A program made the position numbers and the translations under genes. A DNA stretch of 64,000 bases from an uncultured Anaerolineales bacterium (GTDB lineage Bacteria; Planctomycetota; Phycisphaerae; FEN-1346): NCBI GenBank assembly GCA_964461715.1, contig CAYWVR010000011.1, positions 11,289 through 75,288 on the forward strand, given 5' to 3'. Position 1 is the stretch's first letter. Every line of letters begins with the position of its first letter. Below the pieces are notes generated by a model. That model worked only from the letters and a program-made list of their open reading frames with translations. It did no database searches and was not told the DNA's origin. Below are positions 2,346 through 64,000 of this stretch, piece by piece.

Positions 2346-2408
2346 ACGGGTTACTTTAGGGCGAGTCGAGGGTGAAGACAAGGCCCGACGGCGAAGCCGC
2401 ACGCGGGG

Positions 2409-4010: not shown

Positions 4011-4620
4011 GGCGTCTCCTTTCCGGGGTTCGGTTCTCCTTACTATTACCGTGGGAGGAGGTCCGGATTCACGAGAAAAGATCGCCAAGACCGGCCGGAC
4101 GCGAAAAAAGAGGCGTCCCGGCGGCTGGGGACGCCGGGACGCGGGTAGGACTCACCGGCCGCCCGGGCGGAGGGGAGAGGGGGGAAACTCCAGCCGGAGG
4201 CGACCGGCGCTGCATCCGTGTTCACTTGTCGGCCCCGCGGGGGGGCGGGCGCGTCGGCCGCCGAGGGGGGGCGACGACCGACGCGCCAAAGGGGGCGAAG
4301 CATGCACGTGAGCCACAGGAGACTATAGAGACGAACGGCCCGGCGCCAAATCGGGGCCCGGGGAAGGATTTCGCGAAGACCCGCGGGTCTCAGGTAAGTG
4401 CTTTTTCTGGAAGGACTTATGACAAGGCCGCTGGCTCTCGGGAGGGTCGCAGGGGAGGCGGCCTCCGGTGCGCGCAGCTCGGCAAACCGCGAGAAAAAGC
4501 TCGCGAGGGTTCCCGGCAGGGCCTGTCAGAACTTTGGAACCGCCTCCCGGCGGGCGGCGTCCAAGACCGAAGAACGCGGACCTGCATCCGCATGGCAGCC
4601 CAGCGCAAAGGAGGCTTCGG

Positions 4621-5814
4621 ATGAACGCGAAACGGACCCCGGGGATCGCGGTCGTGGCGGCCGTCATGGTCGCGACGCTTGCCGCGCCCGCCGCCGCACG
4701 CATCAAGCTGGCCACCCTCCCGGCCCGGGAGCGGGTCGAGATCCAGCTCGACAACGAGAATGCCACCCTCGTCGAGGAGGAGCGGATCGTGACGCTCCTG
4801 AAGGGGACGAACCACATCGACTTTTCGTGGTCGAATACCGAGATCGACAAGTCCACGATCCTCTTCCGGCCCATCGGCGTCGGCGACGCGGTCCGCGTCA
4901 TCCACGTCGCCTATCCGCCCGGCGAGAACGCCCTCGTCTGGCAGGTCTTCGCCGACAAGGCCGGGCCGGTGAAGGTGCGGATCTCGTACCTGATCGGGAA
5001 CCTGCGGCGGACGTTCTCGTACCGGGCCACGGCCGAGCACGACGAGAAGACCCTCACCCTGCGCAACTACATGCGCGTCTGGAACTTCTCCGGCGAGGAG
5101 TTCGGGTCGAACGCAGGCGTCTGGGCGGGCTTCGGCGAGTACTTCCGCAAGGAGATCGGCCTCCAGGAGTCGAAGGAGATGCTCCTGGCGAAGTTCGTCA
5201 GGGTGCCCATCCGGAAGCGGTTCCTCTTCAACTGGCTGACCGCCCCGCCCGTCCCCGACGAGCCCTACCAGAAGTACGTCCGGATGTACTACGTCCTTCA
5301 GAACGATAAGGAGCACGGCCTTGGCGAGTTTCCCCTGCCCTTCGGCAAGGCCCGCATCTTCTTGAAGGACGGACGCGGCGGCGAGGCCTTCATGGGCGAG
5401 GACTGGGGCCCGTTCACCCCCATCGACGACGAGATGAAGCTGTACCTGGGCCTGGCGCGCGACGTCAAGGTCGAGCGGACCGTCAAGAAGAACCAGCGCC
5501 ACAAAGTCCACGGCAACCTCTTCCACCAGGAGGTCATCGTCCAGTACAAGATGCAGAACTTCAAGGACGAGCCCGTCCAGCTCGACATCGAGGAGAACAT
5601 GAACCGGCTCCGCGACGAGTTCTGCGGGGGGCAGAAGAGTCGCGAGGCGCAGTGGGAGCTGGCCGGCGAGACGACCGACAAGGCGGCCGTCGAGCGCTTA
5701 AGCGCCCAGGACGTCGAGGTCCACGTCTCGCTGCCCGCCGCCCCCGAGGCCGCGGACAAGAAGCCCGACGAGGTCACGTTCCTCCTCCACGTCTTCTTCC
5801 GGAACGAATGGTAA
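4621..5814 (+). CDS. secreted ~400-aa protein, tandem paralog 1 (possibly DUF4139/DUF4140, MuiA-like; unverified)
   Basis: ATG 4621 follows AAAGGAGG. Signal peptide MNAKRTPGIAVVAAVMVATLAAPAAA. Shares the motif LATLP.RE.V.L...E...LV.E.R.I....G.N...FSW with the next two genes. Confidence 0.65.
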   Translation: MNAKRTPGIAVVAAVMVATLAAPAAARIKLATLPARERVEIQLDNENATLVEEERIVTLLKGTNHIDFSWSNTEIDKSTILFRPIGVGDAVRVIHVAYPPGENALVWQVFADKAGPVKVRISYLIGNLRRTFSYRATAEHDEKTLTLRNYMRVWNFSGEEFGSNAGVWAGFGEYFRKEIGLQESKEMLLAKFVRVPIRKRFLFNWLTAPPVPDEPYQKYVRMYYVLQNDKEHGLGEFPLPFGKARIFLKDGRGGEAFMGEDWGPFTPIDDEMKLYLGLARDVKVERTVKKNQRHKVHGNLFHQEVIVQYKMQNFKDEPVQLDIEENMNRLRDEFCGGQKSREAQWELAGETTDKAAVERLSAQDVEVHVSLPAAPEAADKKPDEVTFLLHVFFRNEW

Positions 5815-5836
5815 GTCCCTACGAAAGGAGCCGGCC

Positions 5837-7198
5837 ATGACCGTTCGCACGCTCATCGCGACCGTGGCGGGGCTCGTCCTCGCGGGGACCGCCGCCGCCC
5901 GAAACGTCGACCTGGTGACCCTCCCACCCCGGGAAAAGGTGCAGCTGACGATCTACAACTCCGAGGACCTGACGCTCGTCAAGGAAACCCGGTCGATCAC
6001 CTTCAAGAAGGGCGTCAACCGCCTCCAGTTCTCGTGGGCCGGGACGCTGATCGACCCGACGAGCGTCTACTTCCGCCCCCTCGGCGACGCGGCCGATCAG
6101 ATCGAGGTCCTGGACGCGACCTTCCCCCAGGACCGCCCCCGGGTGCTCATCTGGAACATCGAATCGCAGATCGAGGGGCAGGTGAAGGTCGAGGTGTCCT
6201 ACTTCACCTCCGGCATCTCCTGGGCCGCCGATTACGTTATGATCACCGACGCGGCCGAGACCCGGGCCAGCTTCGACGGGCACGTCACCGTCACGAACCA
6301 TTCCGGCGAGGATTATGAGGGGGCCGAGGTGCGGCTCGTGGTGGGGGTGGTGAACCTGGTGGAGAAGATCCGCCGGCTCGCCGGGGGGATGCCCCCCCCG
6401 GCGCCCCGTTTGCCCGGCGGCGAGGCGGTCCACACCCGCGACGACAAGATGCTCGCGGCCCGCGGGGCCATCGACTTAGCCGAGCGGGCCAAGGCCGACC
6501 GTCCCGCCGAGGACCGTCCCGCCGAGGTCGTCAAGGAAGGGCTCAGCGAGTACTTCATCTTCACGGTCGAGGGCACGCAGACCGTCCCGAACGGCTGGTC
6601 GCGGCGGATGGTCTCGTTCAAGGCGGCTCCGGTCCCCTTCGACATCCTCTACCGCTACCGCCCGCACCAGTACGGCGATCGTCCCGTGCGGTTCTTCCTG
6701 CTGGCCAATGACGCCGAGCACAAGATGGGAGAGTCTCCCCTCCCGGACGGCGTCATCCGCGTCTTCCGCCGGGGCGAGCGCGACGGCTTGGCCTACTACA
6801 CCACGCAATCGACGAAGTACATCCCCGTCAAGGAGAAGATCGAGCTCAACGTGGGCACGGACGACCAGATCGTCTATCAGCGGGTCGTGCTGGACGTTGC
6901 CCGCTCGCGGTTCATCTTCGACCACTCCCCGCCGCGCGTCGTCGGTTGGGACGAGCGCCAGACGTGGGAGGAGGAGGTCCGCAACTACCGCGCGGGGCCC
7001 ATCCGGATGGAAATCCGCCACCTCATCGGCGGCCACGTTGAGTTTACCCTGGAGGATTCGCCCAAGCTCTTCGACTTCCACACGGTCGAGTACACCGTGA
7101 CCATCGGCGCCGGCCGGACGCACACGTGGACGAGCGAAGGCCTCTTCCACCACGGCCGCAACAAGAGCCAGGAGCACATCGAGCTCGTCCGCCCGTGA
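5837..7198 (+). CDS. secreted ~450-aa protein, tandem paralog 2
   Basis: ATG 5837 follows GAAAGGAG. Signal peptide MTVRTLIATVAGLVLAGTAAA. N-terminal block NVDLVTLPPREKVQLTIYNSEDLTLVKETRSITFKKG is near-identical to paralog 3. Confidence 0.7.
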   Translation: MTVRTLIATVAGLVLAGTAAARNVDLVTLPPREKVQLTIYNSEDLTLVKETRSITFKKGVNRLQFSWAGTLIDPTSVYFRPLGDAADQIEVLDATFPQDRPRVLIWNIESQIEGQVKVEVSYFTSGISWAADYVMITDAAETRASFDGHVTVTNHSGEDYEGAEVRLVVGVVNLVEKIRRLAGGMPPPAPRLPGGEAVHTRDDKMLAARGAIDLAERAKADRPAEDRPAEVVKEGLSEYFIFTVEGTQTVPNGWSRRMVSFKAAPVPFDILYRYRPHQYGDRPVRFFLLANDAEHKMGESPLPDGVIRVFRRGERDGLAYYTTQSTKYIPVKEKIELNVGTDDQIVYQRVVLDVARSRFIFDHSPPRVVGWDERQTWEEEVRNYRAGPIRMEIRHLIGGHVEFTLEDSPKLFDFHTVEYTVTIGAGRTHTWTSEGLFHHGRNKSQEHIELVRP

Positions 7199-7208
7199 AA
7201 GGATCGCG

Positions 7209-8573
7209 ATGACACGCGCGCTCGCTCTCTTCGTGGTGGTCCTGGCCGCCACCGCCGCCGAGGCCCGGAACGTCGACCTCGTCACCCTCCCGCCCAGGGA
7301 GGCCGTGCAGCTGACGATCTACAACTCCGAGGACCTGACGCTCGTCAAGGAAACCCGGTCGATCACCTTCAAAAAGGGTGCGAACCGCCTCCAGTTCTCC
7401 TGGGACGGGACGCTGATCGACCCGACGAGCGTCCACTTCCGGCCCGTCGGGGACGCCGCCGAGCGGGTCGAGGTCCTCGACACCACGTTCCCCGCCGACC
7501 GCCCGCAGGTCCTCATCTGGAACGTCGAGTCGAAGGTCGAGGGGCAGGTGGAGGTCGAGGTCAGCTACTTTACGAGCGGCATCTCCTGGGCCGCCGACTA
7601 TATCATGATCACCGACGCCGCCGAGACCGAGGCGAGCTTCGACGGCTACGTGACGGTCACGAATCGCTCCGGCGAGGATTACGAGGAGGCCGAGGTGCGG
7701 CTCGTGGTGGGTGTCGTGAACCTCGTCGAGCCCATCGCCCAACTGGCCCGGCCCGAGGACGCTAAGAATCGGGCGGGTCTTGATCGGGGCCGGAAGGAGG
7801 ACATGCTCCGCCGAAAGTGCGAACTGGCCGAGCCCACCCAGGTCTACGGTCTGCCGGAGAGCTTGTTCTGTGAAGCAGACGCCGCGCCGCCGAAGATCGT
7901 CAAGGAAGGGCTCTCCGAATACTTCATCTTCACCGTCGAGGGCACCCAGACCGTTCCCAACGGCTGGTCACAGCGGATGGTCTCGTTCAAGGCGGCTCCG
8001 GTCCCCTTCGACATCCTCTACCGCTACCGCCCGCACCAGTACGGCGACCGGCCCGTCCGGTTCCTCCTCCTCGCCAACGACGAGGAGCACAAGATGGGCG
8101 AGTCTCCCCTTCCGGACGGGGTGATCCGCGTCTTCCGCCAGGGCGAGCGCGACGGCTTGGCGTACTACACCACGCAATCGACGAAGTACATCCCTATCCG
8201 CGAGAAGATCGAGCTGAATGTGGGCACGGACGACCAAATCGTCTACGAGCGGGTCATCCTGGACGTGGCGCGCTCGACGTTCCTCTTCAACGACCAGGCG
8301 CGCGTGCCGCAGGTCATCGGATGGGACGAGCTTCGCACCTGGCGGGAGGAGGTCCGCAACTACCGCGCGGGGCCCATCCGGATGGAAATCCGCCACCTCA
8401 TCGGCGGGGACGTCGAGTTCACCCTCGAGGATTCGCCCACGCTCTTCGACTTCCGGACGGTCGAGTACACGGTGACCGTCGACGCCGGGAAGAGCCGAAC
8501 GTGGACGAGCACGGGCCTCATCCACCACGGGGTGAGCCAGAAGCAGAACCGGGTCCGGCTCGTCGGCCGCTGA
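7209..8573 (+). CDS. secreted ~450-aa protein, tandem paralog 3
   Basis: ATG 7209 follows GAAAGGA. Signal peptide MTRALALFVVVLAATAAEA. Long stretches are ~90% nucleotide-identical to paralog 2 (for example 6607-6680 vs 7977-8050, identical). Confidence 0.7.
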   Translation: MTRALALFVVVLAATAAEARNVDLVTLPPREAVQLTIYNSEDLTLVKETRSITFKKGANRLQFSWDGTLIDPTSVHFRPVGDAAERVEVLDTTFPADRPQVLIWNVESKVEGQVEVEVSYFTSGISWAADYIMITDAAETEASFDGYVTVTNRSGEDYEEAEVRLVVGVVNLVEPIAQLARPEDAKNRAGLDRGRKEDMLRRKCELAEPTQVYGLPESLFCEADAAPPKIVKEGLSEYFIFTVEGTQTVPNGWSQRMVSFKAAPVPFDILYRYRPHQYGDRPVRFLLLANDEEHKMGESPLPDGVIRVFRQGERDGLAYYTTQSTKYIPIREKIELNVGTDDQIVYERVILDVARSTFLFNDQARVPQVIGWDELRTWREEVRNYRAGPIRMEIRHLIGGDVEFTLEDSPTLFDFRTVEYTVTVDAGKSRTWTSTGLIHHGVSQKQNRVRLVGR

Positions 8574-46547: not shown

Positions 46548-47675
46548 GTGAGGACGCGATTCACGATCGCTTTCGTTGCCGCACTCGCCGCGGCGTCCGT
46601 CTGCCGGGCCGCCGCGCCCGTTCTGCCCCTGCCCGCCGCCCCCGAGGCCGAGCCCGCGCCGGCGGAGCCGGCCGCCCCCGAGGACCCGTTCGAGGCGCAC
46701 TTGGCGTCGGGCAACGAGGCGGCCGAGGCCAAGGACTTTGCGAGGGCCGCCGGTGAGTTCCGCGCCGCGGCCCAGCTCGCCGCCGACGCCGAGGAGCCCC
46801 GCCGCTACGTCGCGGCCATGACGTCGCTGGCCCGGGCGCGGGAGGCGCAGGGCCGTCGCGACGACGCCCAAACCGCCGCCGCCGCCGCCCTCGACGCCGC
46901 CGAGGCCACCTACGGCCGGAACCATCGCGAGGTCGTCCGGTTGCTCGAGCACCTCGGCCGCCTTTCCCGGTCGATGCGGCGGTACGAGGAGGCCCGGGCC
47001 TACTTCGAGCGGGCCCGCCAGGCGATCCTGCGGACGCTCGGGCCCGGCTCGGCCCGCAACGCCGCCCTCCTCTACGAGCTCGCCCGCACCTACCAGCTCG
47101 CCGGGAAGCTGAACACGGCGGACCTTCTGGCGCGGCGGGCGCTGGCCCTCGTGGAGAACAACCGGGTCGCCGACGACCCGGAGGTGGGGCGTGCGGCCAG
47201 CCTCGTTGCCTCCGTCGCCTTGGATATGGAGAAATATGAGGAGGCCGAGGCGTACAACAAGCGGGCCCTCGAGATCGCCGAAAAGGCCTTCGGCGCCGAG
47301 CACGTCAACGTGGCGGTCGTCCTCAACAACCTCGCCAACACCTACCGCGCTCGGGGCCGCCACGACGATGCCGCCCCCCTCTACGAGCGGGCCCTCGCGA
47401 TCCTCGAAGCCGAGTTCGGAAAGGACCACCCGCAGCTCATCCTTGCCCTGGGGAACCTCGCCGCCAACCGCATCGGCCAGGGCCGCCCTGACCAGGCCCG
47501 GGCCCGCCTCGACCGCCTCCTTGCCATCTACGAGGCTCACGCCGCCGAATCCGACGCCGTCGCCGACGTCCTGGACCAGTGCGCCGCCGCTTGGCGCAAG
47601 GCCGGCGAGGAGGCCAAGGCCAAGGCCCTCGAAACGAAGGCGAAGGCGATTCGAGAGGCAGAAGAACAGAAGTAG
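46548..47675 (+). CDS. secreted tetratricopeptide-repeat protein (TPR_10/12-like)
   Basis: Putative GTG start 46548 is preceded by AAGGAGG at 10-nt spacing. Signal peptide RTRFTIAFVAALAAASVCRAAA. Repeated A..Y..AL.I.E...G..HP.VA..LNNLA units. Confidence 0.7.
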   Translation: MRTRFTIAFVAALAAASVCRAAAPVLPLPAAPEAEPAPAEPAAPEDPFEAHLASGNEAAEAKDFARAAGEFRAAAQLAADAEEPRRYVAAMTSLARAREAQGRRDDAQTAAAAALDAAEATYGRNHREVVRLLEHLGRLSRSMRRYEEARAYFERARQAILRTLGPGSARNAALLYELARTYQLAGKLNTADLLARRALALVENNRVADDPEVGRAASLVASVALDMEKYEEAEAYNKRALEIAEKAFGAEHVNVAVVLNNLANTYRARGRHDDAAPLYERALAILEAEFGKDHPQLILALGNLAANRIGQGRPDQARARLDRLLAIYEAHAAESDAVADVLDQCAAAWRKAGEEAKAKALETKAKAIREAEEQK

Positions 47676-47805
47676 GAAACCAGGGGACGGGGGAACCCCC
47701 TGACCGGGTGGCCGGCGAAAGCAGAGGCGCGGCCCGGCCGGCGCGTCGCCTTCGTTGTTTCTTGGCCTGGCCCCTTGGTCCGGTGGTTATCCCCTCCCCG
47801 TGCGT

Positions 47806-49305
47806 TCACCATCTCCGATCCTCCGTCTTCCCATGCCCGAGCAGCAGCCCCGTCACGAGGTACCGGAGCGCATCGATCGGGTGGTCCGAACCGTCCTTGG
47901 CGGGCTTCTCGGACACCTCGCCGCCCCTCCGCCGCCGCCACCGGTACGCCTGCATGGCCCGCACCAGGTGGCGGCACGATGGGTCGATCACGAGGCCCGG
48001 GCCGCCCGGCCGGTCCTTCAGCAGCCTCCGCACGAGCTCGATGCCCTCGTGCACCCCGGACCGCGGCGAGCGGACCCGCATGCCCATCCGCGCGAGCTCC
48101 TGGCACGGGCCGGTGCCCGTCACGTCCGACCGTTGCCACCCCGCCGGGTCGCCGAAGGTGGCGGTCACGGGTCCCGGGTCGAGGGCCTGCATGGCCCGGG
48201 CGTGCTCGGCGATGCGGCGCTCGCGGGCGACGTACTCGGCCAGGACCCGCACCTGGACGTTCGAGAGGTCGGCGTCGACGCCCGTCCCGCCGGGCCGGCC
48301 CTGGACCTGGACCCAGAGGCAGACGAACGGATTGGCATATCCGAAATCGAGGGCCCGGTAGAGCGGCCACTCCGCCTCCCACGCCGCCGGCCCCACGTGC
48401 CGCGCGGGGTCGAACTCCGAGAACACCGCCGCTTCGGTCCGCGGCCGCAGGCACAGCATCTCCGTCTCCCATGCCGCGCGGCTGGCGCGGGCCTGCTGGG
48501 CAAGGGCGTCGTCGATGGGGAGGTACCCGGCGGCCTCGCGGGCCCGCCCGCCGCAGTCCGTCCAGAGCGGACACCGGCTGCACGCCCGGTCCGGCCCGCA
48601 CCGCTCGATGACCTCCCAGAGGCACCACGTGAGCAGCCGCGGCCCGTTTGCCTCGGGCGGCCCGCCGCGGCCGATCCGATCGACGAGCGCGGCCATGGGG
48701 CCGAAGGGGCGGTGCATCGTCGAGAAGGCCTCGATATGGGCCGGGAGCCATTCGCCCTCCGACCCCGGCCCGGACTGCGTCACGAACTGGGCCGCCTGCC
48801 ATACCTCGGGCGTGAACTCGTCCACCTCGTCGCACCGCAGCCGATGGACCCGCACGCCGCGCACCGAGCGCGGCGACTGCGTGAGGACCTCGATTTCCGA
48901 CCCGTTCGCCAGCACCGTCCGCCGGGCCGTGGGCGGTCGTGCCAGGTGCGCCCCCAAGCGCCCCTGCCACTTCCGCCCGAGGGACGCGTACATCTTCCGC
49001 GACTGCTCCAGGCTCCCGCCGAGAATCCGGGTGCGACAGCCCGGGCGGAACATCGAATCGAGATGCGTCGCCACGGAGCCGAGCTCCGTCTTCGCGCCGC
49101 CGCGACACGCCCAGACCACCACGTCGCGCCCCGGAAAAAAGAACGAACGGGCCAGGTACTCCAGCGGCGCCGCGTGCCCCTCGCACACCGCCCGGTCCGG
49201 CACATCCAGCCCGTAGACCGCCCGCACGAACGCCCGGAGCGTGTTCCTGGAGCGCGGCGGGGTCCGAAGGATCGCGTCGACGAGCGGGGTCCAATCGCGG
49301 GTCAT
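47806..49305 (-). CDS. phage terminase large subunit-like protein
   Basis: Walker A-like VWACRGGAKTE; Walker B RLRCDEVDEF; C-terminal RNase-H-like nuclease motifs (ALDFGY..., DHPIDALRY). Start MTRDWTPL at CAT 49303-49305, preceded on the minus strand by AAGGAG. Confidence 0.7.
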   Translation of the reverse strand: MTRDWTPLVDAILRTPPRSRNTLRAFVRAVYGLDVPDRAVCEGHAAPLEYLARSFFFPGRDVVVWACRGGAKTELGSVATHLDSMFRPGCRTRILGGSLEQSRKMYASLGRKWQGRLGAHLARPPTARRTVLANGSEIEVLTQSPRSVRGVRVHRLRCDEVDEFTPEVWQAAQFVTQSGPGSEGEWLPAHIEAFSTMHRPFGPMAALVDRIGRGGPPEANGPRLLTWCLWEVIERCGPDRACSRCPLWTDCGGRAREAAGYLPIDDALAQQARASRAAWETEMLCLRPRTEAAVFSEFDPARHVGPAAWEAEWPLYRALDFGYANPFVCLWVQVQGRPGGTGVDADLSNVQVRVLAEYVARERRIAEHARAMQALDPGPVTATFGDPAGWQRSDVTGTGPCQELARMGMRVRSPRSGVHEGIELVRRLLKDRPGGPGLVIDPSCRHLVRAMQAYRWRRRRGGEVSEKPAKDGSDHPIDALRYLVTGLLLGHGKTEDRRW

Positions 49306-49395
49306 GGCAGGGCTCCTTACCCCGGGGGCTTCTCCTCGGGCATGGAAGGCAACCAGGGGACCGAACAAGCCGGTTGCCGGGTCCCCCTTTTGTCC

Positions 49396-50010
49396 TCACT
49401 CTCTCCCACACGCCTCCAGATACCAGCACGCCAACCGCTCCAGCCGTTCGGCCCGGTCGGGCCGGGTACTCATGGCGGCGCGGGCGATGGCGGCCAGGGC
49501 CTCGGTGACGGCGGCATGCTGCTCGGGCCGCAGGAAGAACGTCATCGGCCGAAACGGCGGCGCGGCATCGGCAGGCGGGCGCAGGTCGGGGGGCGGTTGG
49601 GCGAGGGCCAGCAGACGCTCGATTCCGTCCGGCGGCTCGGGAAGGAACCGGGCCAGGTCCCGCGGGCTTCGCCCTTCCGCCAGCCGGGCCACCAGGGCCG
49701 CGCGCCGAGTCGGGTCGTCGCGTCCCTCCAGCCGGTTCAGCGTCGCGAGCAGGAGCCGGGCTTCCTCGTCCTCGACCTCCCACACGTCGCACCGGGCCTG
49801 CGTGTGGCCGAGGTCCCTGAGGACCCGCGCCCGGTGGTGCCCGTTCAGAATCTGGTACCGCCCGCCGCACGCTGGTCGCACGGTCAGCGGCTCGTATCGC
49901 CCGGTCCGCGCGACGTGCCGTCGAAGCACCTCGAGCGCCCGCGGCGCCATGCGGTTGGCGTTCTCCGGATGGGCGTCGAGCGCGGCGAGGGGGAGGGTTC
50001 GGAGGGTCAT
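49396..50010 (-). CDS. ParB-like nuclease domain protein
   Basis: LDAHPENANRM...YQILNGHHRARVLRDLG is ParB N-terminal (ParB/Srx) domain motif. CAT 50008-50010 is preceded on the minus strand by AAGGAGAAG. Confidence 0.65.
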   Translation of the reverse strand: MTLRTLPLAALDAHPENANRMAPRALEVLRRHVARTGRYEPLTVRPACGGRYQILNGHHRARVLRDLGHTQARCDVWEVEDEEARLLLATLNRLEGRDDPTRRAALVARLAEGRSPRDLARFLPEPPDGIERLLALAQPPPDLRPPADAAPPFRPMTFFLRPEQHAAVTEALAAIARAAMSTRPDRAERLERLACWYLEACGRE

Positions 50011-50127
50011 GGCGTCTTCTCCTTCTGGGCAGAGGAACGGGCCAACAAGGTGACGCGGGGACCAAGCGACCGGGGACGGCAACGACCGCACCGTCGTTTT
50101 CGTCGGTCCCCCGGTCTGCCCGGTCGG

Positions 50128-50559
50128 TTAGTCACCCGCCTTCCCGATGATCTCCAGCATCCGCCCCACGGCCTCGTCGGGGAGCGCGGCCAGGCGTTTC
50201 GCGAGGGGGTCGTCCTCGGGCGTCGTCTTCGGTTCGGGCGGCGGGGCGGGGACGAGCGGCTCGACGCCCAGGCGCAGGACCTCCCGGGCCGCCTGACGCG
50301 CCTCCGACGCCGACTCCGACTCCAGCTCCGCAATGAGCCGCGCCGCGGCCGCCGGCGCCCAGAGCCGAAGCGCCGCCCGGGCCTGGGCCAGCGGCTCCCG
50401 CAGCTTCTCCTCCACCAGGGCCCGGAAGGCGGGGGCCTCCAGCCACCGGCGGAGCGTCTCCGGGCGGACCCCCACCGCCCGGGCCGCCTCGTCCACGCGA
50501 AACGTGTGCCTCATGAGCGACTCGGCGGCCTTGTGATGGCGACAGGTGATCTTCTTCAT
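50128..50559 (-). CDS. HTH DNA-binding protein (possible terminase small subunit)
   Basis: 143 aa with a MerR/excisionase-like HTH (FRVDEAARAVGVRPETLRRWL). CAT 50557-50559 is preceded on the minus strand by GGGAGAC. Position is upstream of the ParB-like and terminase genes. Confidence 0.45.
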   Translation of the reverse strand: MKKITCRHHKAAESLMRHTFRVDEAARAVGVRPETLRRWLEAPAFRALVEEKLREPLAQARAALRLWAPAAAARLIAELESESASEARQAAREVLRLGVEPLVPAPPPEPKTTPEDDPLAKRLAALPDEAVGRMLEIIGKAGD

Positions 50560-51320
50560 GGCGAGGTCTCCCATTCGGGGGGCGTCTCGGGCCGCCGCCA
50601 CAGGTAGTAGACCGGGGCGGCCCCGAGGTGGCGGGCCACGAGGTCCAGCAGCCGGGCGTGCGGCGGGCGCTGGGTCTGATGGTTCTTCGCGCCGAGATAC
50701 GAGCGGGCCCACCGTGCCAGCTCCCGATCGACAAATCGCCGCATCGCGGGCGAAAGGGTCTCGAGCGCCTCGGCCATTGCCGCGGGGCGATGCGCGACGG
50801 AAAGGTCGAGACCGGCGGCGTCCAGGGCGCTTCGCAATCGTTCGGCCTGCGGCGGCGCCGACGGCGGATAGGCCGTCATCCCCGCCCGCTCGAAGAAGGG
50901 ATGGACGCGGCCCATGGCGGCGAGGGCCTCGACGTACGGCGTCCCGACCGCCGGCAGCGTCTCGCGCACCAGCCGCGCCGCCAGGCCCAGCCCCCGCCAG
51001 TTCGGCGCGACGACGACGCGGCTGACGATGCGCAGCTCCCGGTTCACGAGGTCCGCCAGGGCCACGCGCCCCAGCCGCCCGAGCCGGTACCGCCCGCCCG
51101 TCGCGCGGTTCCGGGCGGCCAGGCTCAGCGGGCTGCGGCTGTAGACGAGGACGCCCACCCGGGTCGGCCGGCCGCCGGCCCCGTGGCGCATCGCGAAGAC
51201 GTCCGTGATCGCCCCGGCCCCGTGGCCGCGGTAATGAAGCGGCGCGAGCGCCCGCCAGGCGGCGCGCGTCCCGCGCTCGATCCGGACCTCTTCGGTCAGC
51301 GTGCATGGGCGGCGGGTCAT
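50556..51320 (-). CDS. hypothetical protein, weak GNAT-acetyltransferase-like motif
   Basis: 254 aa; VVVAPNWRGLGLAARLVRE resembles GNAT motif A (R/Q-x-x-G-x-G/A). 4-nt overlap with both neighbours on the minus strand. Confidence 0.4.
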   Translation of the reverse strand: MTRRPCTLTEEVRIERGTRAAWRALAPLHYRGHGAGAITDVFAMRHGAGGRPTRVGVLVYSRSPLSLAARNRATGGRYRLGRLGRVALADLVNRELRIVSRVVVAPNWRGLGLAARLVRETLPAVGTPYVEALAAMGRVHPFFERAGMTAYPPSAPPQAERLRSALDAAGLDLSVAHRPAAMAEALETLSPAMRRFVDRELARWARSYLGAKNHQTQRPPHARLLDLVARHLGAAPVYYLWRRPETPPEWETSP

Positions 51321-52054
51321 CGGGCGCGCTCCCGGCCCGTCTCTCGGTCCGGGTCGGCGTAGTAGACGTCGGCGGCAGTTCCGGCGGCCTTGACGACGAG
51401 GACGTCCGGGGCGAGGTCGTCGAGGATGTCGTCGTGGGCGCAGGCGGCCAGGATCGTCAGGTTCCGCCGGTCCGCCAGCCGCCGCAGCCGATACGCCACC
51501 GCCCGGGCGCAGAGCCGGTCGAGCGTCGAGGCCAGCTCGTCCGCCACCAGAACCCGCCACGCCTCGGGCGGGGCCGCGTCGGCCTCCACGTCCGCCAGGC
51601 CCAGGGCCGCCAGCGCGTGCGCCAGCCGCAGCCGCCACCGCTGCCCCTCGCTCAGCTCCCCCGGCCGCCTCAGCAACACGAACGCGTCCGCCAGCCCGGC
51701 CGTGCTCGCCAGGTACAGCGTCTCGTCGAGCGGCAGGCCGAACCCGTCGACGACGCGCTTGCGCGGCGGGGGCTCGATGTCCGCCAGATTCACGATCCGG
51801 GCCCGCGCCTCCGCCGCCCGCAGGCTCGCGACGAGCCGCCGCAGGCCCGCGCTCTTGCCGCACCCGGACGGGCCCGTCAGGAAGACGACGTCGCCCGGCC
51901 GCACGTCCACCGCGAGCCCGTCGTAGAGGCGGACCTCGTCGCGCTCGTCCAGGCCGAGGCCGAACATCTCGGCCACCGCCTCGACCCGCCGGCTCGGGCG
52001 CCCCCGCGCCCGGCCGCGGGCGGAGAACTTTTCGTTGATCGTATGCAGCGCCAT
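51317..52054 (-). CDS. standalone ABC-type ATPase (nucleotide-binding domain only)
   Basis: GPSGCGKS is Walker A; LSEGQRWRL is the signature; LVADE is Walker B; LAS is the D-loop; AAHD is the H-loop. No adjacent permease. CAT 52052-52054 is preceded on the minus strand by AAGGAG. Confidence 0.65.
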   Translation of the reverse strand: MALHTINEKFSARGRARGRPSRRVEAVAEMFGLGLDERDEVRLYDGLAVDVRPGDVVFLTGPSGCGKSAGLRRLVASLRAAEARARIVNLADIEPPPRKRVVDGFGLPLDETLYLASTAGLADAFVLLRRPGELSEGQRWRLRLAHALAALGLADVEADAAPPEAWRVLVADELASTLDRLCARAVAYRLRRLADRRNLTILAACAHDDILDDLAPDVLVVKAAGTAADVYYADPDRETGRERAR

Positions 52055-52069
52055 CGTTAGTCTCCTTGC

Positions 52070-52372
52070 ATGATCCTGTTGAAGAAGAAGTTCCTGGAGG
52101 CGGTCCGCTCGGGGGCCAAGCGGCAGACGATCCGCGTGTGGCCGAAGCGGCGTCTGAAGGCGGGGCAGGGGGAGTTCATCCCCGGCCTCGGACGCATCCG
52201 CATCACCGCCTTCGAGCCCGTGCGACCGGAGGACCTGACTGAGCAGGACGCGCGCCTGGACGGGTTCGCGTCCCGCGAGGCGCTGCTCGCCGAGCTTCGT
52301 GCCCTGTACGGCGCCGACCTCGCCACCGTCCCGTGCTTCCGCATCCGCTTCGTATGGCCGGCCGAGCCGTAG
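52070..52372 (+). CDS. ASCH-domain protein
   Basis: KKKFLEAVRSGAKRQTIRVW is the ASCH N-terminal motif. Its start is only 15 bp from the divergent ATPase start and has no SD, so the start is uncertain. Confidence 0.55.
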   Translation: MILLKKKFLEAVRSGAKRQTIRVWPKRRLKAGQGEFIPGLGRIRITAFEPVRPEDLTEQDARLDGFASREALLAELRALYGADLATVPCFRIRFVWPAEP

Positions 52373-52384
52373 CGGCGTCCGATC

Positions 52385-52789
52385 TTACTCGTCCCCATCG
52401 CCGCCCCCCTTCCGTCGTTTCCGCCTCGCCTCGGCCCGGGCGACCTTGCGTTCGATGCGATGGATGCGGCGGCGGAGGGCCGTGGCGGAGAGGGCCCGGC
52501 CGTCCTCGGCATAGAGCTCTCGCCGGGCGATCTCCCGTAGCGACACCCGCCCGAGGATGTGGAGCCGCGCGAGCCGCCGCTCCTCGCCCGAGAGGGCCGT
52601 CCAGTTCCGGACCGTCGCGACGAGCCGCGGATCGGTGGCCCGGCGTCGGGCCCGGCGGACGATCTGTCGCACGGCGTCCCGCGTCACCCCGCACGCCGCC
52701 GCCAACTGCCGGTACGACGCCCCGCGAACGTGATAGAGCTCCAGCAGGGCCCGTTCGCGGGGCGTCAGGGTCCGCAAGGCGGCCTTCAT
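52385..52789 (-). CDS. small protein with two tandem sigma-70 region-4-like HTH motifs
   Basis: LTPRERALLELYHVRGASYRQLAAACGVTRDAVRQIVRRARRR and LSGEERRLARLHILGRVSLREIARRE both fit the region-4 pattern (ER.vl.L....G.s..EIA). Start MKAALRTL at CAT 52787-52789. Confidence 0.5.
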   Translation of the reverse strand: MKAALRTLTPRERALLELYHVRGASYRQLAAACGVTRDAVRQIVRRARRRATDPRLVATVRNWTALSGEERRLARLHILGRVSLREIARRELYAEDGRALSATALRRRIHRIERKVARAEARRKRRKGGGDGDE

Positions 52790-52891
52790 GGTGGCGTGAG
52801 GGGCGATCTGACGGGCGTTTTGGTCGGGGCCGGGGCTTGCGTCCTCCGGAGACACGGCGACTCCCTTCCGGGCTCGGGTGTTCGCTAGCAA

Positions 52892-53036
52892 TCGTACTCA
52901 CAGTATAGCTTGTGTTTGCTGGAAGTCAACCCGCAGTTTGAAAAAGCCCCTATTTTTTGTTGACGCGGATTCGCACACGAGTAAACTTCAGGCGACAACG
53001 AGGGGTAAGCGGCCCCATCAAGCCGGGGAGGCAACG
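52892..53036. promoter_or_regulatory. AT-rich divergent promoter/operator region between the region-4 HTH gene and the CI/LexA-like repressor
   Basis: Lowest-GC stretch in the window. TTGACG...TAAACT is a -35/-10 candidate for the repressor. Imperfect palindrome CACAGTATAGCTTGTG. Confidence 0.4.
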
Positions 53037-53936
53037 ATGGGTCTCAAGGACAACCTGAAGGAGTTGGCCCGTCTCCGTCGTGAGCTCGGCATGCTCCGCG
53101 ACACGGACGCCTTCCGCCAGCGCGTGCGCCGGGCCCGCAAGGGGCGCGGCATGACGCTCGAGGAGTTGGCCTCCGCCACGGGTATGGCCAAGAGCTACCT
53201 GTCGCAGATCGAGACCGGCGCCGCCAGCCCGCCCCGCGACGACAAGGTCCGCCGCATCGCCGCCGCCCTCGGCCTCGACGAGGTCGAGCTCGTGAGCCTG
53301 GCCCGCCACGCCCAGTTGCCCGACGAGATGCGCGAGCGGATGGCCCGCCTCGCGACGATCTTCGACATGACCGAGGAGCGGATTCAGAACCTCCTCGAGG
53401 TCCAGGCCCTGCGCGAATCCGCCGACGCCGCCCCCGTCGACCTCGACGCCCTCCACCGAAGCGGCCTCCTGGAGAAGCTCGCCGCCTGGGGCGAACCCGC
53501 CCCGCCCGCCCGCCTCCGGCGCGTCCCCATCATCAACAAGGTCTCCGCCGGGTACTCCGTCGAGTTCACGGACCTCGACTACCCCGTGGGCGTGGCCGAC
53601 GAGTACATCGCCGTGCCCGTCGACCTCGGCGACCCGCATGCCTTTGCCGTCCGCGTCGTCGGCGACTCCATGGAGCCGCGGTACCACGAGGGCGACGTCG
53701 TGATCCTCAGCCCCGCCGAGACCATTCAGAGCGGCGACGACTGCTTCGTCCGCTTCGCCCCGGAGGTGCGCCGGAAGGGCAACGAGGCCACGTTCAAGCG
53801 CGTCTTCTTCGACGCCGAAGACGCTGTGCGGCTCCAGCCGTTGAACGAGAGCTACCCGCCCGACGTCGTGGGGCCCGCGGAGATCGCCGGCATCTACCGG
53901 GCCGTCGCCCGCTACGAGAAGCTCGAGCGCAAGTGA
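53037..53936 (+). CDS. CI/LexA-like repressor (XRE-family HTH + S24 peptidase domain)
   Basis: ATG 53037 follows GGGAGG. HTH LEELASATGMAKSYLSQIETG. C-terminal S24 domain with GDSMEP (Ser nucleophile) and a downstream basic residue region (FKRV). Confidence 0.8.
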   Translation: MGLKDNLKELARLRRELGMLRDTDAFRQRVRRARKGRGMTLEELASATGMAKSYLSQIETGAASPPRDDKVRRIAAALGLDEVELVSLARHAQLPDEMRERMARLATIFDMTEERIQNLLEVQALRESADAAPVDLDALHRSGLLEKLAAWGEPAPPARLRRVPIINKVSAGYSVEFTDLDYPVGVADEYIAVPVDLGDPHAFAVRVVGDSMEPRYHEGDVVILSPAETIQSGDDCFVRFAPEVRRKGNEATFKRVFFDAEDAVRLQPLNESYPPDVVGPAEIAGIYRAVARYEKLERK

Positions 53937-54970: not shown

Positions 54971-55861
54971 ACGGCAAGGCGCCGGGCATCGGGCGACGGC
55001 AAACGGCGAACGTGACCTCCGGACGGGTGGGGATGCCGGCATAGGTAAGGCTTCGAGATTGCCAAGAGCGTCAACGTTCAGTCCGTTCGCGACGAAGTTC
55101 AGGGCGGCGCTTCCCTTGGGGCGGCCGTGGACGGGCCCGGGTCCTGTCTGACGAATCGGATCGGGCTTCGAGCGGCCGCATTCGCCCCTGGCGGCGTCTG
55201 CCTGGAAACTCATGCACACGTCTGAGGCGCGCGGGTTTCGCTCCGCGCCGCGCGCTCGATGCCTTGGCCCCGGGGCCGGCATACGACGCATGGCCACGTG
55301 TGGCCGTGTATTCCGCGGTCCGCGTTCCGAGCTCCGCGTTCAGTCCCCGCCCCTGCCGCAAAAACGCAAATGCCCACATTTTTGCGTCAGGTTCTCCGGG
55401 GCAATGGCCAAGGCCGGCGGGGGGGCGGCAAGAAGGGGTCAACTTCGTGCAAAAAGGGGGGCAAAAGGGGCGAGTTCCCCCCGGGTACCCCCCGAAAAGG
55501 TGCGAAAAGTGTGTCGCGGAGGGATAAATCGTTTCACGAATCCCGCCAAACGGGGGTTGGGGGCTGCGCGGCTTGCCCAGCTTGCGCAGGTTGCCATCGG
55601 GGCAAATGATTAGGGCCGGATTGGGGGTCGGGGCGGTCGCCTGGCGGAGGACGGGAGGGCCGGAGTGTTGCGGCGAATCAGCGATGGGCGGACGGATGAC
55701 GATGGACGCGGAGGCAGGGAGTCGGGGGGAGAAAGAGCGTGGGGTGGATCGGGCGGGGAAGGGGGTTGCATCGGGATGGGGGAGGGGTATAATACGACTC
55801 TTTGACGCCCGGTCCAAACGGGCCGGGAAGGCCGAATTCGCAAGAATACGGGGCAAGGGCC
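54971..55861. other. ~890-bp non-coding region with a purine/G-run-rich tract and the rpmE promoter
   Basis: No ORF with a credible translation. Strong G>>C skew on the plus strand from ~55400 to 55790, with many GGGG runs. Inverted repeat ACGCAAATG..CATTTTTGCGT near 55365-55395. Confidence 0.5.
55764..55793 (+). promoter_or_regulatory. putative sigma70 promoter of rpmE
   Basis: TTGCAT, 16-nt spacer, TATAAT, ~70 nt upstream of ATG 55862. Confidence 0.45.
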
Positions 55862-63589: not shown

Positions 63590-64000
63590 TTATCGGCTCC
63601 CTGCGATCTGAATGTAGGTATCGCGAATGCTGATGTTGGCGATGCACGCCCGTTCGCACCGGCCGCACCCCACGCAGCCGACCTGGCCGGTCCGTTCGAG
63701 GATGAACTTGCCCTTGCGGAACATGCGGTGGCGGAGGCGGCTCCAGCGCTCCTCGCGGAAGTTCTCGCCCCCCGCGACCTCGGCGAACGGGTCGAGCTGG
63801 CACGAATCGTACCGCCGCACCCGCGTCCCGCCCGAGAGGTCGTCGGCGATCTCGTCGACCACGTCGAAGCAGTAGCACGTGGGGCAGGTCGTGTTGCACG
63901 AGCCGCACGAGAAGCAGCGGCGGGCGATGGCCTCCCACACGAGGCTGTCGTAGGAGGCGTCCAGCACCTCCGGCAGGTACTTGAGCTCGAAGGGCAGCTT
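63590..64000 (-). CDS. hydrogenase beta subunit (4Fe-4S protein; anaerobic sulfite reductase subunit A-like), 3' part, 5' end outside window
   Basis: CFSCGSCNTTCPTCYCF and CVGCGRCERAC ferredoxin-type motifs. The reading frame stays open to the window edge (KLPFELKYLPEVLDASYD...). Confidence 0.8.
   Translation of the reverse strand, partial: KLPFELKYLPEVLDASYDSLVWEAIARRCFSCGSCNTTCPTCYCFDVVDEIADDLSGGTRVRRYDSCQLDPFAEVAGGENFREERWSRLRHRMFRKGKFILERTGQVGCVGCGRCERACIANISIRDTYIQIAGSR

Follow-up and report, generated by a model that had tools for sequence, protein, structure and literature searches.

A chromosomal phage-type terminase operon of the Phycisphaerae that is very probably domesticated and locally repressed

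What does a phage-type large terminase subunit (TerL) do in a bacterial chromosome when no capsid gene lies near it? This question is raised by eight ORFs at positions 47806-53936 of a 64-kb window (the whole stretch of DNA that was analysed), all of which are present at the coordinates reported in an initial annotation made from the sequence alone. That annotation also noted that capsid, portal, tail, integrase and lysis genes are missing from the 64 kb, which holds at the sensitivity of Pfam searches (a few ORFs lack a match); the same genes were not found within 10 kb of TerL at the related loci examined. We judge that the locus is very probably an anciently domesticated, vertically inherited and locally repressed phage operon of the class Phycisphaerae. 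More tentatively, and with somewhat more doubt than confidence, we propose that its role is capsid-independent DNA processing. We consider the case for the two proposals taken together to be evenly balanced, as a compromise between our confidence in the first and our hesitation about the second. No prior description of this operon was found.

The TerL-like ATPase-nuclease (499 amino acids; 47806-49305, minus strand) has no Pfam match of its own, and its identification relies on phrog_2 (3e-14) and on its predicted fold. A Foldseek search with the predicted model, whose middle third is of low confidence, matched only phage large terminases (all of the top 33); D6E scored 4e-13, and the nuclease domain gave TM values of 0.67-0.72. 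The Walker A (RGGAKT) and Walker B (CDEVDE) motifs, D320, D386 and the KDGxDHxxDALRY motif are each unchanged in 82-83 of the 83 loci compared, and no TerL among these loci contains an internal stop. A five-cysteine insert that is specific to this clade (Cys5; C228, C236, C242, C245 and C251) has its motif preserved at all 83 cellular loci and is absent from the two viral relatives that align through that region.

Relatives of this TerL are encoded in 364 stretches from species-representative genomes, and the best 80 of the 364 mostly bear Planctomycetota or Phycisphaerae labels, the remainder being ‘uncultured’ TPA labels. In at least ten other Phycisphaerae species genomes (tier 1; TerL 60-73% identical), the eight-gene cluster and hypE occur in unchanged order, and contigs of 464 kb and 310 kb carry the full cluster and hypE in matching order. 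A Sig4-ABC-GNAT-ParB-HTH...TerL core (tier 2; TerL 44-47% identical) is found in many more genomes of Phycisphaerae and other Planctomycetota, always among housekeeping genes and in one case on a complete chromosome. This core forms a contiguous operon at seven tier-2 loci. Given that in other tier-2 copies inserted housekeeping genes separate TerL from the HTH gene, the module tolerates dispersal. The ASCH gene is missing in tier 2, and the GNAT and ParB genes are missing in a tier at 50% identity, and therefore the components found throughout are only the ABC ATPase, TerL and a small helical protein. Among the species-level genomes compared, HypE is on average ~76% identical, and pairs of genomes with more similar HypE also have more similar TerL (Spearman 0.63, p = 4e-5, for pairwise identities).

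These patterns bear directly on the explanations that had been offered at the outset, among which a ‘domesticated module’ proves to be the best. The locus is not mobile or strain-variable: its universal conservation without variability argues against a defence role of that type, an argument that the initial annotation had itself set out, and the word ‘island’ does not suit a cluster whose content, order and position beside hypE are kept across species-level genomes. A prophage remnant in decay, with packaging and repressor genes retained by chance, would explain why every gene has phage homologues and why the regulator is CI-like. However, the intact ORFs, the catalytic residues invariant across 83 loci and the synteny kept in genomes ~25% diverged in HypE contradict it, and none of the relatives at the loci examined proved to lie inside a prophage; we therefore consider it very improbable. 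More remote still is an integrated mobile element, whether a PICI-like phage satellite or one of another type, that takes over the capsids of a helper. The locus superficially resembles packaging-redirecting satellites in combining TerS-like and TerL genes with an SOS-type repressor and no capsid genes, but this candidate was rejected on the basis of the fixed hypE-adjacent position, the vertical co-divergence and the housekeeping genes that interrupt tier-2 copies, and a search of the locus found no integrase, primase/replication module, tRNA context or att-like repeats.

Phage derivation of the genes is borne out by PHROG matches and phage homologues of TerL’s neighbours. The ParB/Srx-fold protein (204 amino acids; 49396-50010, minus strand) carries an NGHHR variant of box II and matches phrog_723 (ParB-like) at 2e-14; its Pfam ParB_N score of 23.6 bits (5e-5) is under the 26.3 cut-off. 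Its HPxN, YEPL and GHHR motifs are conserved among 45 orthologues. Published work describes fusions of the ParB fold with acetyltransferase, ASCH and methyltransferase domains, and its role in activating phage enzymes that modify DNA. The small HTH protein (143 amino acids; 50128-50559, minus strand) is small-terminase-like on the basis of weak matches (4e-6 to 9e-4) to phrog_7344, phrog_4044 and phrog_2538 (terminase small subunit), and in contiguous tier-2 loci its gene lies directly upstream of TerL, an analogous place to that in phages.

A stand-alone ABC-type ATPase (245 amino acids; 51317-52054, minus strand; PF00005; phrog_293, 5e-22) has a legible Walker A motif, LSEGQ signature, Walker B motif and H-loop. 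Its gene overlaps by 4 nt that of an acyltransferase-like protein (254 amino acids; 50556-51320, minus strand) that has a GNAT fold and, at the C terminus, a helical domain. Fused ABC-GNAT proteins occur in other organisms, which supports the prediction that the ATPase is the functional partner of the GNAT protein. Overlaps of 4 nt had been described across the whole operon, and they exist at the ABC/GNAT and GNAT/HTH junctions, but gaps of 117 nt and 90 nt separate HTH from ParB and ParB from TerL, respectively. The YqfB-type ASCH protein (100 amino acids; 52070-52372, plus strand; PF04266, 2e-9) starts 15 nt from the ABC start, and its gene runs antisense to what is presumed to be the operon transcript. 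Among full-length PDB matches its profile fits YqfB/N4-acetylcytidine amidohydrolase best, if weakly (E = 0.006). Residues K17, T20, R22 and D64 are invariant and align to YqfB K21, T24, R26 and E74, with Asp taking the place of Glu74. ASCH proteins are described in a preprint as ac4C erasers.

The first gene of the operon encodes a protein of 156 amino acids with sigma-70 region-4-like HTHs (Sig4; 52385-52855). It had been placed divergent from the operon, but it lies on the minus strand, with a GTG start at 52855 preceded by the Shine-Dalgarno sequence AAGGGAG, and in tier-2 loci it is found directly upstream of ABC. Pfam detects one of the two region-4 domains (PF04545, 7e-11) in the protein of the window; the other can be made out by eye and was detected in the orthologue of locus L079. 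Weak Phage_antitermQ matches were also obtained, and we regard Sig4 as a candidate activator or antiterminator. Divergently encoded is a CI/LexA-type repressor (299 amino acids; 53037-53936, plus strand, 53037 being the most likely start) that joins an XRE HTH to an S24 self-cleaving peptidase (HTH_3, 6e-13; Peptidase_S24, 2e-18; phrog_4, 2e-36). The Ala-Gly site (VSAGY), the Ser (GDSMEP) and the Lys (FKRV) are all legible. Its gene adjoins the cluster in tier-1 loci, with ~1.4 kb between it and Sig4 at locus L007.

Between these two genes lie the operon promoter P(Sig4) (TTGACT-16-TATACT; 52902-52929, minus strand; 10/12 consensus positions) and the repressor-gene promoter P(S24) (TTGACG-16-TAAACT; 52960-52987, plus strand). 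For P(Sig4), a TTGAC-(16-19 nt)-TATAAT-type match recurs in nine of ten tier-1 intergenic regions compared. Candidate operators of the type GTTYG-N8-CRAAY, O3 (52880-52897) and O2 (52914-52931), lie over the P(Sig4) start site and its -35/spacer, and candidate operator O1 (52969-52986) overlaps P(S24), where a GTTTA-N8-CRAAY element in the spacer/-10 is kept in all ten tier-1 regions compared. The copies in the window are degenerate, with one or two mismatches, and the best match in the 64 kb is O2 itself (one mismatch); exact matches cluster in the corresponding intergenic region of nine tier-1 loci. The repressor features and conserved operators support the CI/LexA-type control that had been suggested, and the operon is probably under SOS-type control. 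An HTH_3 + Peptidase_M78 regulator is present at 17 tier-2 loci and directly follows TerL at 16 of them, such that a damage-type regulator is linked to the cluster in both tiers.

The control region resembles lambda-like immunity regions with self-cleaving repressors of the CI/LexA type. Both have an HTH-S24 repressor that bears an Ala-Gly site as well as a Ser/Lys dyad, and two or three palindromic operators over divergent sigma-70-type promoters. The differences are that the repressor here would guard a chromosomal operon without lysogeny or lysis genes, that LexA has a winged-helix N-terminal domain whereas this one is XRE-type, and that tier-2 genomes instead hold an HTH-ImmA/IrrE fusion beside TerL.

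The gene set and, nearly, its order match the late or packaging-proximal module of SSU5-like phage-plasmids, Nickievirus (Pseudomonas phage nickie) and Rhizobium RHEph10/RHph_X66-like siphoviruses, which shares with the locus a ParB(-like) protein, an ABC ATPase, a GNAT-like ‘MK0520’ protein, a small DNA-binding protein and TerL. The ABC ATPases are 35-38% identical and the GNAT-like proteins 23-28%. However, the TerLs of these phages are not close (~20%), the phages lack the Cys5 insert, ASCH, region-4 protein and S24 repressor at the corresponding position, and they have portal and major capsid genes directly after TerL, which is never so here. The nearest TerLs in IMG/VR are 25-35% identical, with no ABC, GNAT or ParB alongside, and no clade member was found there. 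We judge that the operon derives from the pre-portal part of such a siphovirus module (ParB, ABC ATPase, GNAT, small DNA-binding protein and TerL).

Both catalytic activities of TerL are strictly conserved by motif, and to our knowledge every characterised TerL motor acts on a portal. In known systems this implies a portal-docked motor, and an ATPase conserved in full yet lacking any known ring partner therefore speaks for a gene transfer agent (GTA), in which an SOS-type repressor and a region-4 activator would turn on late genes dispersed elsewhere in the chromosome (head, tail and lysis), and TerS-like and TerL proteins would pack host DNA into capsids. Class-wide vertical conservation at 45-75% identity recalls that of RcGTA-type TerLs, and the small Sig4 protein at the operon head, with its weak antiterminator-Q similarity, brings GafA/GafYZ-type GTA activators to mind. 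Like the RcGTA type, the locus is phage-derived, vertical over a large clade and under purifying selection, with cellular or SOS-type control and a small sigma-region-4-like regulator, and its tolerance of dispersal also fits. Nevertheless, in known GTAs the portal and capsid genes adjoin the terminase gene, whereas head, tail and lysis genes are missing at or near this locus in the genomes examined. Clade members would be expected in IMG/VR if phage-like structural genes were adjacent, and our literature search found no report of a GTA in Planctomycetota. We consider a GTA unlikely, and a capsid-independent, damage- or infection-induced role in DNA processing seems likelier, because no phage structural gene lies beside TerL at the related loci examined.

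The ABC ATPase and TerL nuclease that are common to all three tiers also invite comparison with ‘ABC ATPase + nuclease’ machines (SbcCD/Rad50-Mre11, OLD, PARIS, Gabija, Septu and Lamassu). In a core-genome anti-phage immune system of this kind, invading or concatemeric DNA would be sensed by the ATPase together with ParB and then cleaved by TerL, and GNAT and ASCH, as writer and eraser/reader, might provide a mark that tells self from non-self, much as restriction-modification does. Phage-type regulators answer infection as well as damage, and the ATPase weakly matches PADLOC mad3, mad8 and LmuB. However, PADLOC matched no system or nuclease component at the locus, no defence genes lie nearby, and fixed class-wide position, order and content are atypical of defence systems, which are usually patchy and in variable islands. 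Self-cleaving repressor control would be unusual for a constitutive restriction-modification-like system. The named machines use TOPRIM, HNH or Mre11 nucleases rather than a terminase (ASCE motor and RNase H-like domain), and the ABC ATPase here has no coiled coil. Immunity is thus, in our estimation, improbable.

With capsid-independent DNA processing as the preferred reading, we propose the following operation. In uninduced cells, the local XRE-S24 repressor would occupy the operators over both divergent promoters, and DNA damage or infection would free P(Sig4) through RecA-stimulated repressor self-cleavage. A single transcript, suggested by the gene spacing, would then run from the region-4 gene, antisense over ASCH, through ABC-GNAT-HTH-ParB-TerL. 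Selection and loading of DNA may fall to the small HTH protein together with an NTP switch of the ParB fold, and TerL, with its intact ATPase and nuclease and a putative added Cys5 metal site, would cut and translocate the DNA. ABC-GNAT may form a single acyl-transferase unit that depends on ATP and works on a polyanionic substrate, probably nucleic acid, whose N-acyl marks would be stripped by ASCH when the operon is off. The likeness of this scheme to TmcA/NAT10 ATP-dependent cytidine acetyltransferases paired with ASCH/YqfB deacetylases is one of logic only. In the ASCH protein here, the catalytic Lys, Thr and Arg of YqfB are all preserved, together with an acidic residue, but TmcA/NAT10 use a RecD-like helicase ATPase rather than an ABC nucleotide-binding domain, the GNAT protein has no specific similarity to either, and the ASCH partner is absent from tier-2 loci. 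A nearer parallel for the unit itself is offered by COG2401-type proteins, wherein an ABC-type ATPase is fused to a predicted acetyltransferase; the same coupling is translational here.

The eight ORFs that the initial annotation placed between 47806 and 53936 are all present, and each of the family calls is backed by searches. The TerL-like protein (47806-49305, minus strand) has no Pfam match and is recognized by the PHROG family for terminase large subunits (phrog_2, 3e-14), the ParB-like protein (49396-50010, minus strand) matches a ParB-like PHROG (2e-14) and lies just under the cut-off for Pfam ParB_N, and the 143-aa helix-turn-helix (HTH) protein has weak matches to small-terminase PHROGs (4e-6). 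The 254-aa GNAT protein gives a marginal Pfam GNAT match together with a clear match to phrog_886, and clear Pfam matches were obtained for the ABC ATPase, ASCH, the region-4 protein (Sig4) and the HTH_3 + Peptidase_S24 repressor (S24), whose start is probably at 53037. Two details required correction. The region-4 gene, described as divergent from the operon, is actually on the minus strand (52385-52855) and heads it, and the 4-nt overlaps assigned to the minus-strand operon exist at two of its four junctions and are absent from the other two.

Our Pfam survey of the 64 kb agrees that no capsid, portal, tail, integrase or lysis family is encoded there. The rest of the window carries housekeeping genes and a few unknowns, with families including UDG, dehydrogenases, kinases, HisD, NifU/NifS, CstA, HypE, L31, Dxr, RseP and NiFe hydrogenase. 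Scans of the same 64 kb for tRNAs and Rfam families returned neither.

The TerL-like protein has the two enzymatic parts of a large terminase. Its N-terminal ASCE ATPase includes a Walker A sequence (RGGAKT) and a Walker B sequence (CDEVDE), within which R68, K72, T73, D159 and E160 are invariant in 83 of 83 loci, and the five acidic residues of the C-terminal RNase H-like nuclease (D320, D386, D471, D474 and D478) are likewise invariant across the 83 loci. Thus, the motifs whose disruption would have undermined the terminase call are intact. Further signatures are a conserved ST motif and the nuclease sequences DFGYANPF, DPAG and KDGxDHxxDALRY, and PF17289 is present on TerL relatives. A sequence search of the PDB yielded marginal terminase matches only, and ETV6 matches from the same search were rejected as spurious. 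With the AlphaFold model, which is moderately confident (pLDDT 64; good in the nuclease domain and poor at residues 144-291), the 33 best PDB matches in the fold search are all large terminases. The full-length Foldseek matches are the D6E, T4, Sf6 and T7 terminases, D6E at 4e-13, and the nuclease domain aligns with those of P22, G20c and P74-26 at TM 0.67-0.72. Judged on sequence and predicted fold, TerL is a protein of terminase fold and chemistry without the viral context.

Between the two domains lies a motif, W-C-x-W-E-x-I-E-x-C-x(3,5)-C-S-x-C-x-L-x3-C-x-G-[KR]-A-[KR], whose five cysteines are present in 83 of 83 cellular loci and absent from the two viral relatives that align through this region. 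The motif looks like a metal site gained during or after domestication. The final four of the cysteines (C-X5-C-X2-C-X5-C) are similar to the Fe-S cluster loop of EndoIII/MutY, a resemblance we offer as a lead only.

More than 1,800 relatives of TerL were found in the protein collection. Among the top 120 of these, identity ranges from 41 to 100% and is almost always at least 50%, and where named they come from Phycisphaerae or Planctomycetota metagenome-assembled genomes. The complete cluster recurs on two long contigs (464 kb and 310 kb, TerL approximately 60% identical) with gene order and orientation matching the window, namely S24, region-4, ASCH, ABC, GNAT, HTH, ParB and TerL, where it again adjoins a hypE-like gene and has other neighbours that are housekeeping genes. 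Between the window and the 464-kb contig, the proteins are 61% (TerL), 55% (ParB), 42% (HTH), 65% (GNAT), 55% (ABC), 75% (ASCH), 39% (Sig4) and 56% (S24) identical, compared with 72% for the neighbouring HypE. A scan of one genome per species uncovered 364 stretches encoding a TerL relative, and the best 80 of these are labelled mostly Planctomycetota or Phycisphaerae. Other labels among them, from third-party assemblies (TPA), are ‘uncultured Pirellulales’, ‘Anaerolineales’ and ‘Kuenenia’, which we suspect are unreliable.

We sorted the related loci into three tiers by TerL identity to the window: tier 1 (at least 60%), an intermediate tier (approximately 50%) and tier 2 (44-47%). Tier 1 loci have the full cluster beside hypE. 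The intermediate loci (L003, L020 and L025) have ASCH divergent from ABC, followed by an acidic, helical protein of 160-210 aa and then by TerL and a membrane protein of the bPH_2 family; they lack GNAT and ParB, and therefore the minimal conserved set is ABC, a small protein and TerL. The 209-aa protein of L003 was considered as a possible GNAT and rejected. Tier 2, which comprises Sedimentisphaerales and Phycisphaerales and includes a complete chromosome (CP070806), has Sig4-ABC-GNAT-ParB-HTH and then TerL, directly after HTH in seven loci and elsewhere beyond up to approximately 9 kb of inserted DNA. At one such locus (L079:4860-9775), a sulfatase and a 1,100-aa FAD_oxidored (PF12831) protein separate the HTH gene from TerL. 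Equivalent inserts occur in about 20 tier-2 loci, and in most of them only 16-180 nt separate the end of the gene for the large protein from the TerL gene downstream; this is an old, stable insertion into a former operon. Downstream of TerL on the complete chromosome are ankyrin, pectate lyase, ThiF, sulfite reductase, CysK and MnmA genes.

The initial annotation had considered a decayed prophage remnant, which relatives embedded in a complete prophage would have supported. No phage structural gene occurs among the annotated neighbours of the related loci, where the only shared gene families are those of the cluster itself and housekeeping families, and neither the window nor the 10 kb around TerL in the relatives examined yielded a portal or capsid gene. 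L003, the most divergent relative on a long contig, was searched for prophage context with PHROGs and Pfam, and no structural matches were obtained. In tier 1, the more similar two TerL proteins are, the more similar the corresponding HypE proteins tend to be (Spearman 0.63, p = 4e-5), as vertical co-divergence predicts. The compared pairs are no more than 78% identical in protein, and thus synonymous sites are saturated. There are no internal stops in TerL across the 83 loci, every catalytic residue checked is invariant and synteny is kept. Given this conservation, co-divergence and integrity of TerL, a decaying remnant is effectively excluded. A phage satellite (PICI-like) or other integrated mobile element can effectively be set aside as well, because there is no integrase or primase match in Pfam and no tRNA in the 64 kb, no flanking repeats above chance were found, and the position beside hypE is fixed. 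Indeed, the initial annotation had itself noted that conservation without variability would count against a mobile or defence island, and such conservation is what the related loci exhibit. From these sequence comparisons, we consider it established that the cluster is a domesticated, vertically inherited operon with enzymes that are predicted to be intact.

The operon appears to be under the control of a local CI/LexA-type repressor, a proposal that draws on sequence features and on conserved candidate operators. The GDSMEP motif of the S24 protein is intact as originally reported, with its nucleophilic Ser, and an Ala-Gly site (VSAGY) and the Lys (FKRV) can also be read in the translation, alongside the HTH_3 and Peptidase_S24 domains detected by Pfam. 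A consensus promoter scan of 47.4-55.9 kb returned three promoter-like sites where 0.4 would be expected, and two of the three form a divergent pair in the Sig4/S24 intergenic region: P(Sig4), TTGACT-16-TATACT, and P(S24), TTGACG-16-TAAACT. When tier-1 intergenic regions were compared, the P(S24) match was present in 10 of 10 and the P(Sig4) match in 9 of 10. Copies of a palindrome, GTTYG-N8-CRAAY, lie across the −35 and spacer of P(Sig4), shortly after the −10 of that promoter, and across the spacer and −10 of P(S24). When the fetched loci were searched for exact copies, these were concentrated between Sig4 and S24 in nine tier-1 loci. The copies in the window are degenerate, the best in 64 kb being a site with one mismatch at 52914-52931, and the remaining matches with two mismatches are at chance level. 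No further good operator site was found in the rest of the window, nor any sign of a wider regulon within the 64 kb, and therefore the S24 repressor looks dedicated to its own locus.

Tier 2 lacks the S24 protein. Of its 17 loci that carry a protein combining HTH_3 with Peptidase_M78 (ImmA/IrrE), 16 have it directly after TerL, and thus a damage-responsive type of phage regulator is linked to the genes in both tiers. This fusion is located at L046:11580-12680 and in 15 further tier-2 loci, lies farther downstream in L033, and is followed in tier 2 by a conserved 175-aa protein that has no family match.

The start codons of the ABC and ASCH genes diverge and are only 15 nt apart (52054-52070), and this spacer contains the strong Shine-Dalgarno sequence of ABC. 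No promoter was found in the spacer, and therefore the operon would most simply be transcribed from P(Sig4), with a transcript running antisense through ASCH. In turn, ASCH may be expressed as a near-leaderless mRNA from a candidate promoter inside the ABC gene (TTGATC-17-TAGTCT, 52034-52072, plus strand). This antisense arrangement suggests mutual transcriptional interference. On the other side of the cluster, the stop codon of S24 and the GTG with which the hypE-like AIRS gene begins overlap (GTGA, 53933-53936), which suggests co-transcription. In the related locus L002, an ion-channel gene separates the two, indicating that this coupling is not universal.

The 254-aa protein is predicted to fold as a GNAT domain with a confident helical C-terminal domain, and its invariant positions include motif A (NWRGLGLA), the pyrophosphate loop of GNAT enzymes, motif B (HPFFERAGM) and numerous arginines. 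A GNAT profile search of 1.84 billion representatives recovered 1,445 relatives, and approximately 25 of the best 150 are proteins of 450-580 aa in which the GNAT part is C-terminal. In the two fused proteins examined (P0242 and P0257), the N-terminal portion is an ABC ATPase 43% identical to that of the window, where the separate ABC and GNAT genes overlap by 4 nt. These fusions and the overlap provide good evidence that ABC and GNAT would act as a single functional unit. In its fold, motifs and coupling to an ABC ATPase, the protein fits the ABC-linked, COG2401-type GNAT acyl-CoA transferases.

The ParB-like protein, by its PHROG match (2e-14), is a member of the ParB fold family and is not of the partition type. 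It fails the partition-ParB model TIGR00180 (19.7 bits against a cut-off of 58), its box II reads NGHHRARV rather than GERRxRA, and there is no parA near its gene. Recent work (PMC12704722, PMC13229309) shows that proteins with this fold bind CTP, ATP or GTP, form fusions with acetyltransferase, ASCH and methyltransferase domains, and are able to activate DNA-modifying enzymes of phages; the nucleotide specificity of the present protein is not predictable from its sequence. For ASCH, a search of the PDB with the single sequence found nothing and a profile was required. The best full-length solved relative is E. coli YqfB, an N4-acetylcytidine amidohydrolase, with a weak match (E = 0.006). ASCH residues K17, T20, R22 and D64 are invariant in 10 of 10 aligned orthologues and align with YqfB K21, T24, R26 and E74, the first three of which are essential in YqfB and the last its acid (PMC6972931); the final position is Asp in our protein, not Glu. 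In YqfB-type enzymes the Lys, Thr and Glu make up the catalytic triad and the Arg serves the oxyanion. Diverse ASCH proteins are reported to strip ac4C from tRNA (2026 preprint).

Homologues of the ABC (35-38% identity) and GNAT-like (23-28%) proteins were found in a single group of phages, 84-122 kb in size and for the most part classified no further than Caudoviricetes, whose members include SSU5-like phage-plasmids, Nickievirus, Rhizobium phages of the RHEph10/RHph_X66 type, and Stenotrophomonas and Xanthomonas phages. In the SSU5-like, Nickievirus and Rhizobium phages the genes are ordered ParB, (ParB-nuclease or methyltransferase), ABC, ‘MK0520 ABC-type ATPase fused to acetyltransferase’, DNA-binding protein, TerL, portal and major capsid protein. 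Given this matching order, the Phycisphaerae operon corresponds to the pre-portal part of such a phage late module. However, the phage portal gene is immediately downstream of TerL, whereas no structural gene is found there in the related Phycisphaerae loci examined. An IMG/VR scan with TerL returned distant relatives only, the nearest being 25-35% identical over partial alignments and having no ABC, GNAT or ParB relatives alongside, and a scan with the GNAT profile, whose patterns are too clade-specific, gave no relatives. No description of the function of the phage ParB-ABC-GNAT module was found in the literature searched.

This absence of structural genes beside TerL, unlike in the phage analogue, and the invariant core across tiers of an ABC ATPase plus a nuclease-motor lead us to favour a capsid-independent DNA-processing role that would be induced by damage or infection. 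The combination of ABC ATPase and nuclease follows a logic common to SbcCD, OLD, PARIS, Gabija and similar systems. Every characterized TerL motor acts on a portal ring, and the strict conservation of the TerL ATPase could accordingly also reflect the motor of a gene transfer agent (GTA) whose genes are dispersed. The first gene of the operon, encoding the region-4 protein, resembles GTA and late-gene activators, and, as expected of such an agent, a large clade shows vertical inheritance of the operon and purifying selection on it. Nevertheless, capsid, portal and tail genes are absent locally, both within 10 kb of TerL in the related loci that were examined and in the window, and we judge a dispersed GTA to be unlikely. 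An anti-phage defence system residing in the core genome likewise seems improbable to us. Its conservation pattern would be atypical, and a comparison with PADLOC-DB v2 matched no described system, the only hits being weak single-protein matches (mad3 and mad8 at 1e-9 to 1e-10, LmuB at 0.007, and capH/control-protein to HTH) and nothing at all for TerL, ParB, GNAT, ASCH or Sig4.

A more elaborate version of the capsid-independent role, to which we attach little credence, is that of a phage terminase made into a cellular enzyme by a bacterial class: a DNA motor-nuclease that would be induced by the SOS response and bear an extra Fe-S or Zn cluster. Its partners would be ABC-GNAT, as an ATP-driven ‘writer’ of acyl groups on nucleic acids that the ParB-fold switch loads, and ASCH as the ‘eraser’. 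If true, this would imply a new DNA or RNA N-acyl mark, such as N4-acetylcytosine, coupled to DNA cutting and translocation, and the transcripts of the writer/motor operon and of the eraser gene would be antisense to each other. The pairing of ABC-GNAT with ASCH is a concrete, testable candidate for a new writer/eraser pair in nucleic-acid acylation.

Phage genes are known to have been domesticated as whole particles (GTAs, tailocins) and as single enzymes; what appears new is a case centred on a terminase without capsid genes. To our knowledge, there is no description of a terminase-centred operon long kept by a whole bacterial class without adjoining capsid genes, and literature searches on terminase clusters of Phycisphaerae, on COG2401, on the SSU5 module and on planctomycete GTAs returned nothing relevant. 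If the operon drives a dispersed GTA, no earlier GTA-like system would be known from Planctomycetota, and if it acts without capsids, the strongest DNA motor-nuclease known would have acquired a new role in the cell. The operon also offers a handle on the uncharacterized ParB-ABC-GNAT module that precedes the terminase genes of SSU5-like phage-plasmids, carriers of antimicrobial resistance that are of clinical relevance.

Several minor features of these loci were also recorded. An ORF6N gene (KilA-N-like, of antirepressor type) adjoins hypE in L002 (2505-3035) and on the 310-kb JGI contig. The window has no detectable copy, and rpmE, dxr, rseP and NiFe hydrogenase genes lie there between hypE and a Fer4_22 gene (63593-64000). 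The 890 bp between hypE and rpmE (54971-55860) include no convincing ORF and coincide with the cumulative GC skew minimum, the skew changing from about −0.05 to +0.17 near 55 kb; DnaA boxes, Rfam families and tRNAs were sought at this switch and none was found. A family of 36-nt direct repeats (D1, 67-72% identical) occupies three non-coding gaps, after TerL (47674-47709), before TerL (49347-49382) and before ParB (50040-50075), and these are probably due to chance in DNA of 70% GC, though their placement is suggestive. Far from the cluster, two tandem paralogous DUF4139 genes of approximately 490 aa each (5702-8573) are preceded by three ORFs of 330-580 aa that have no Pfam match (1422-5814).
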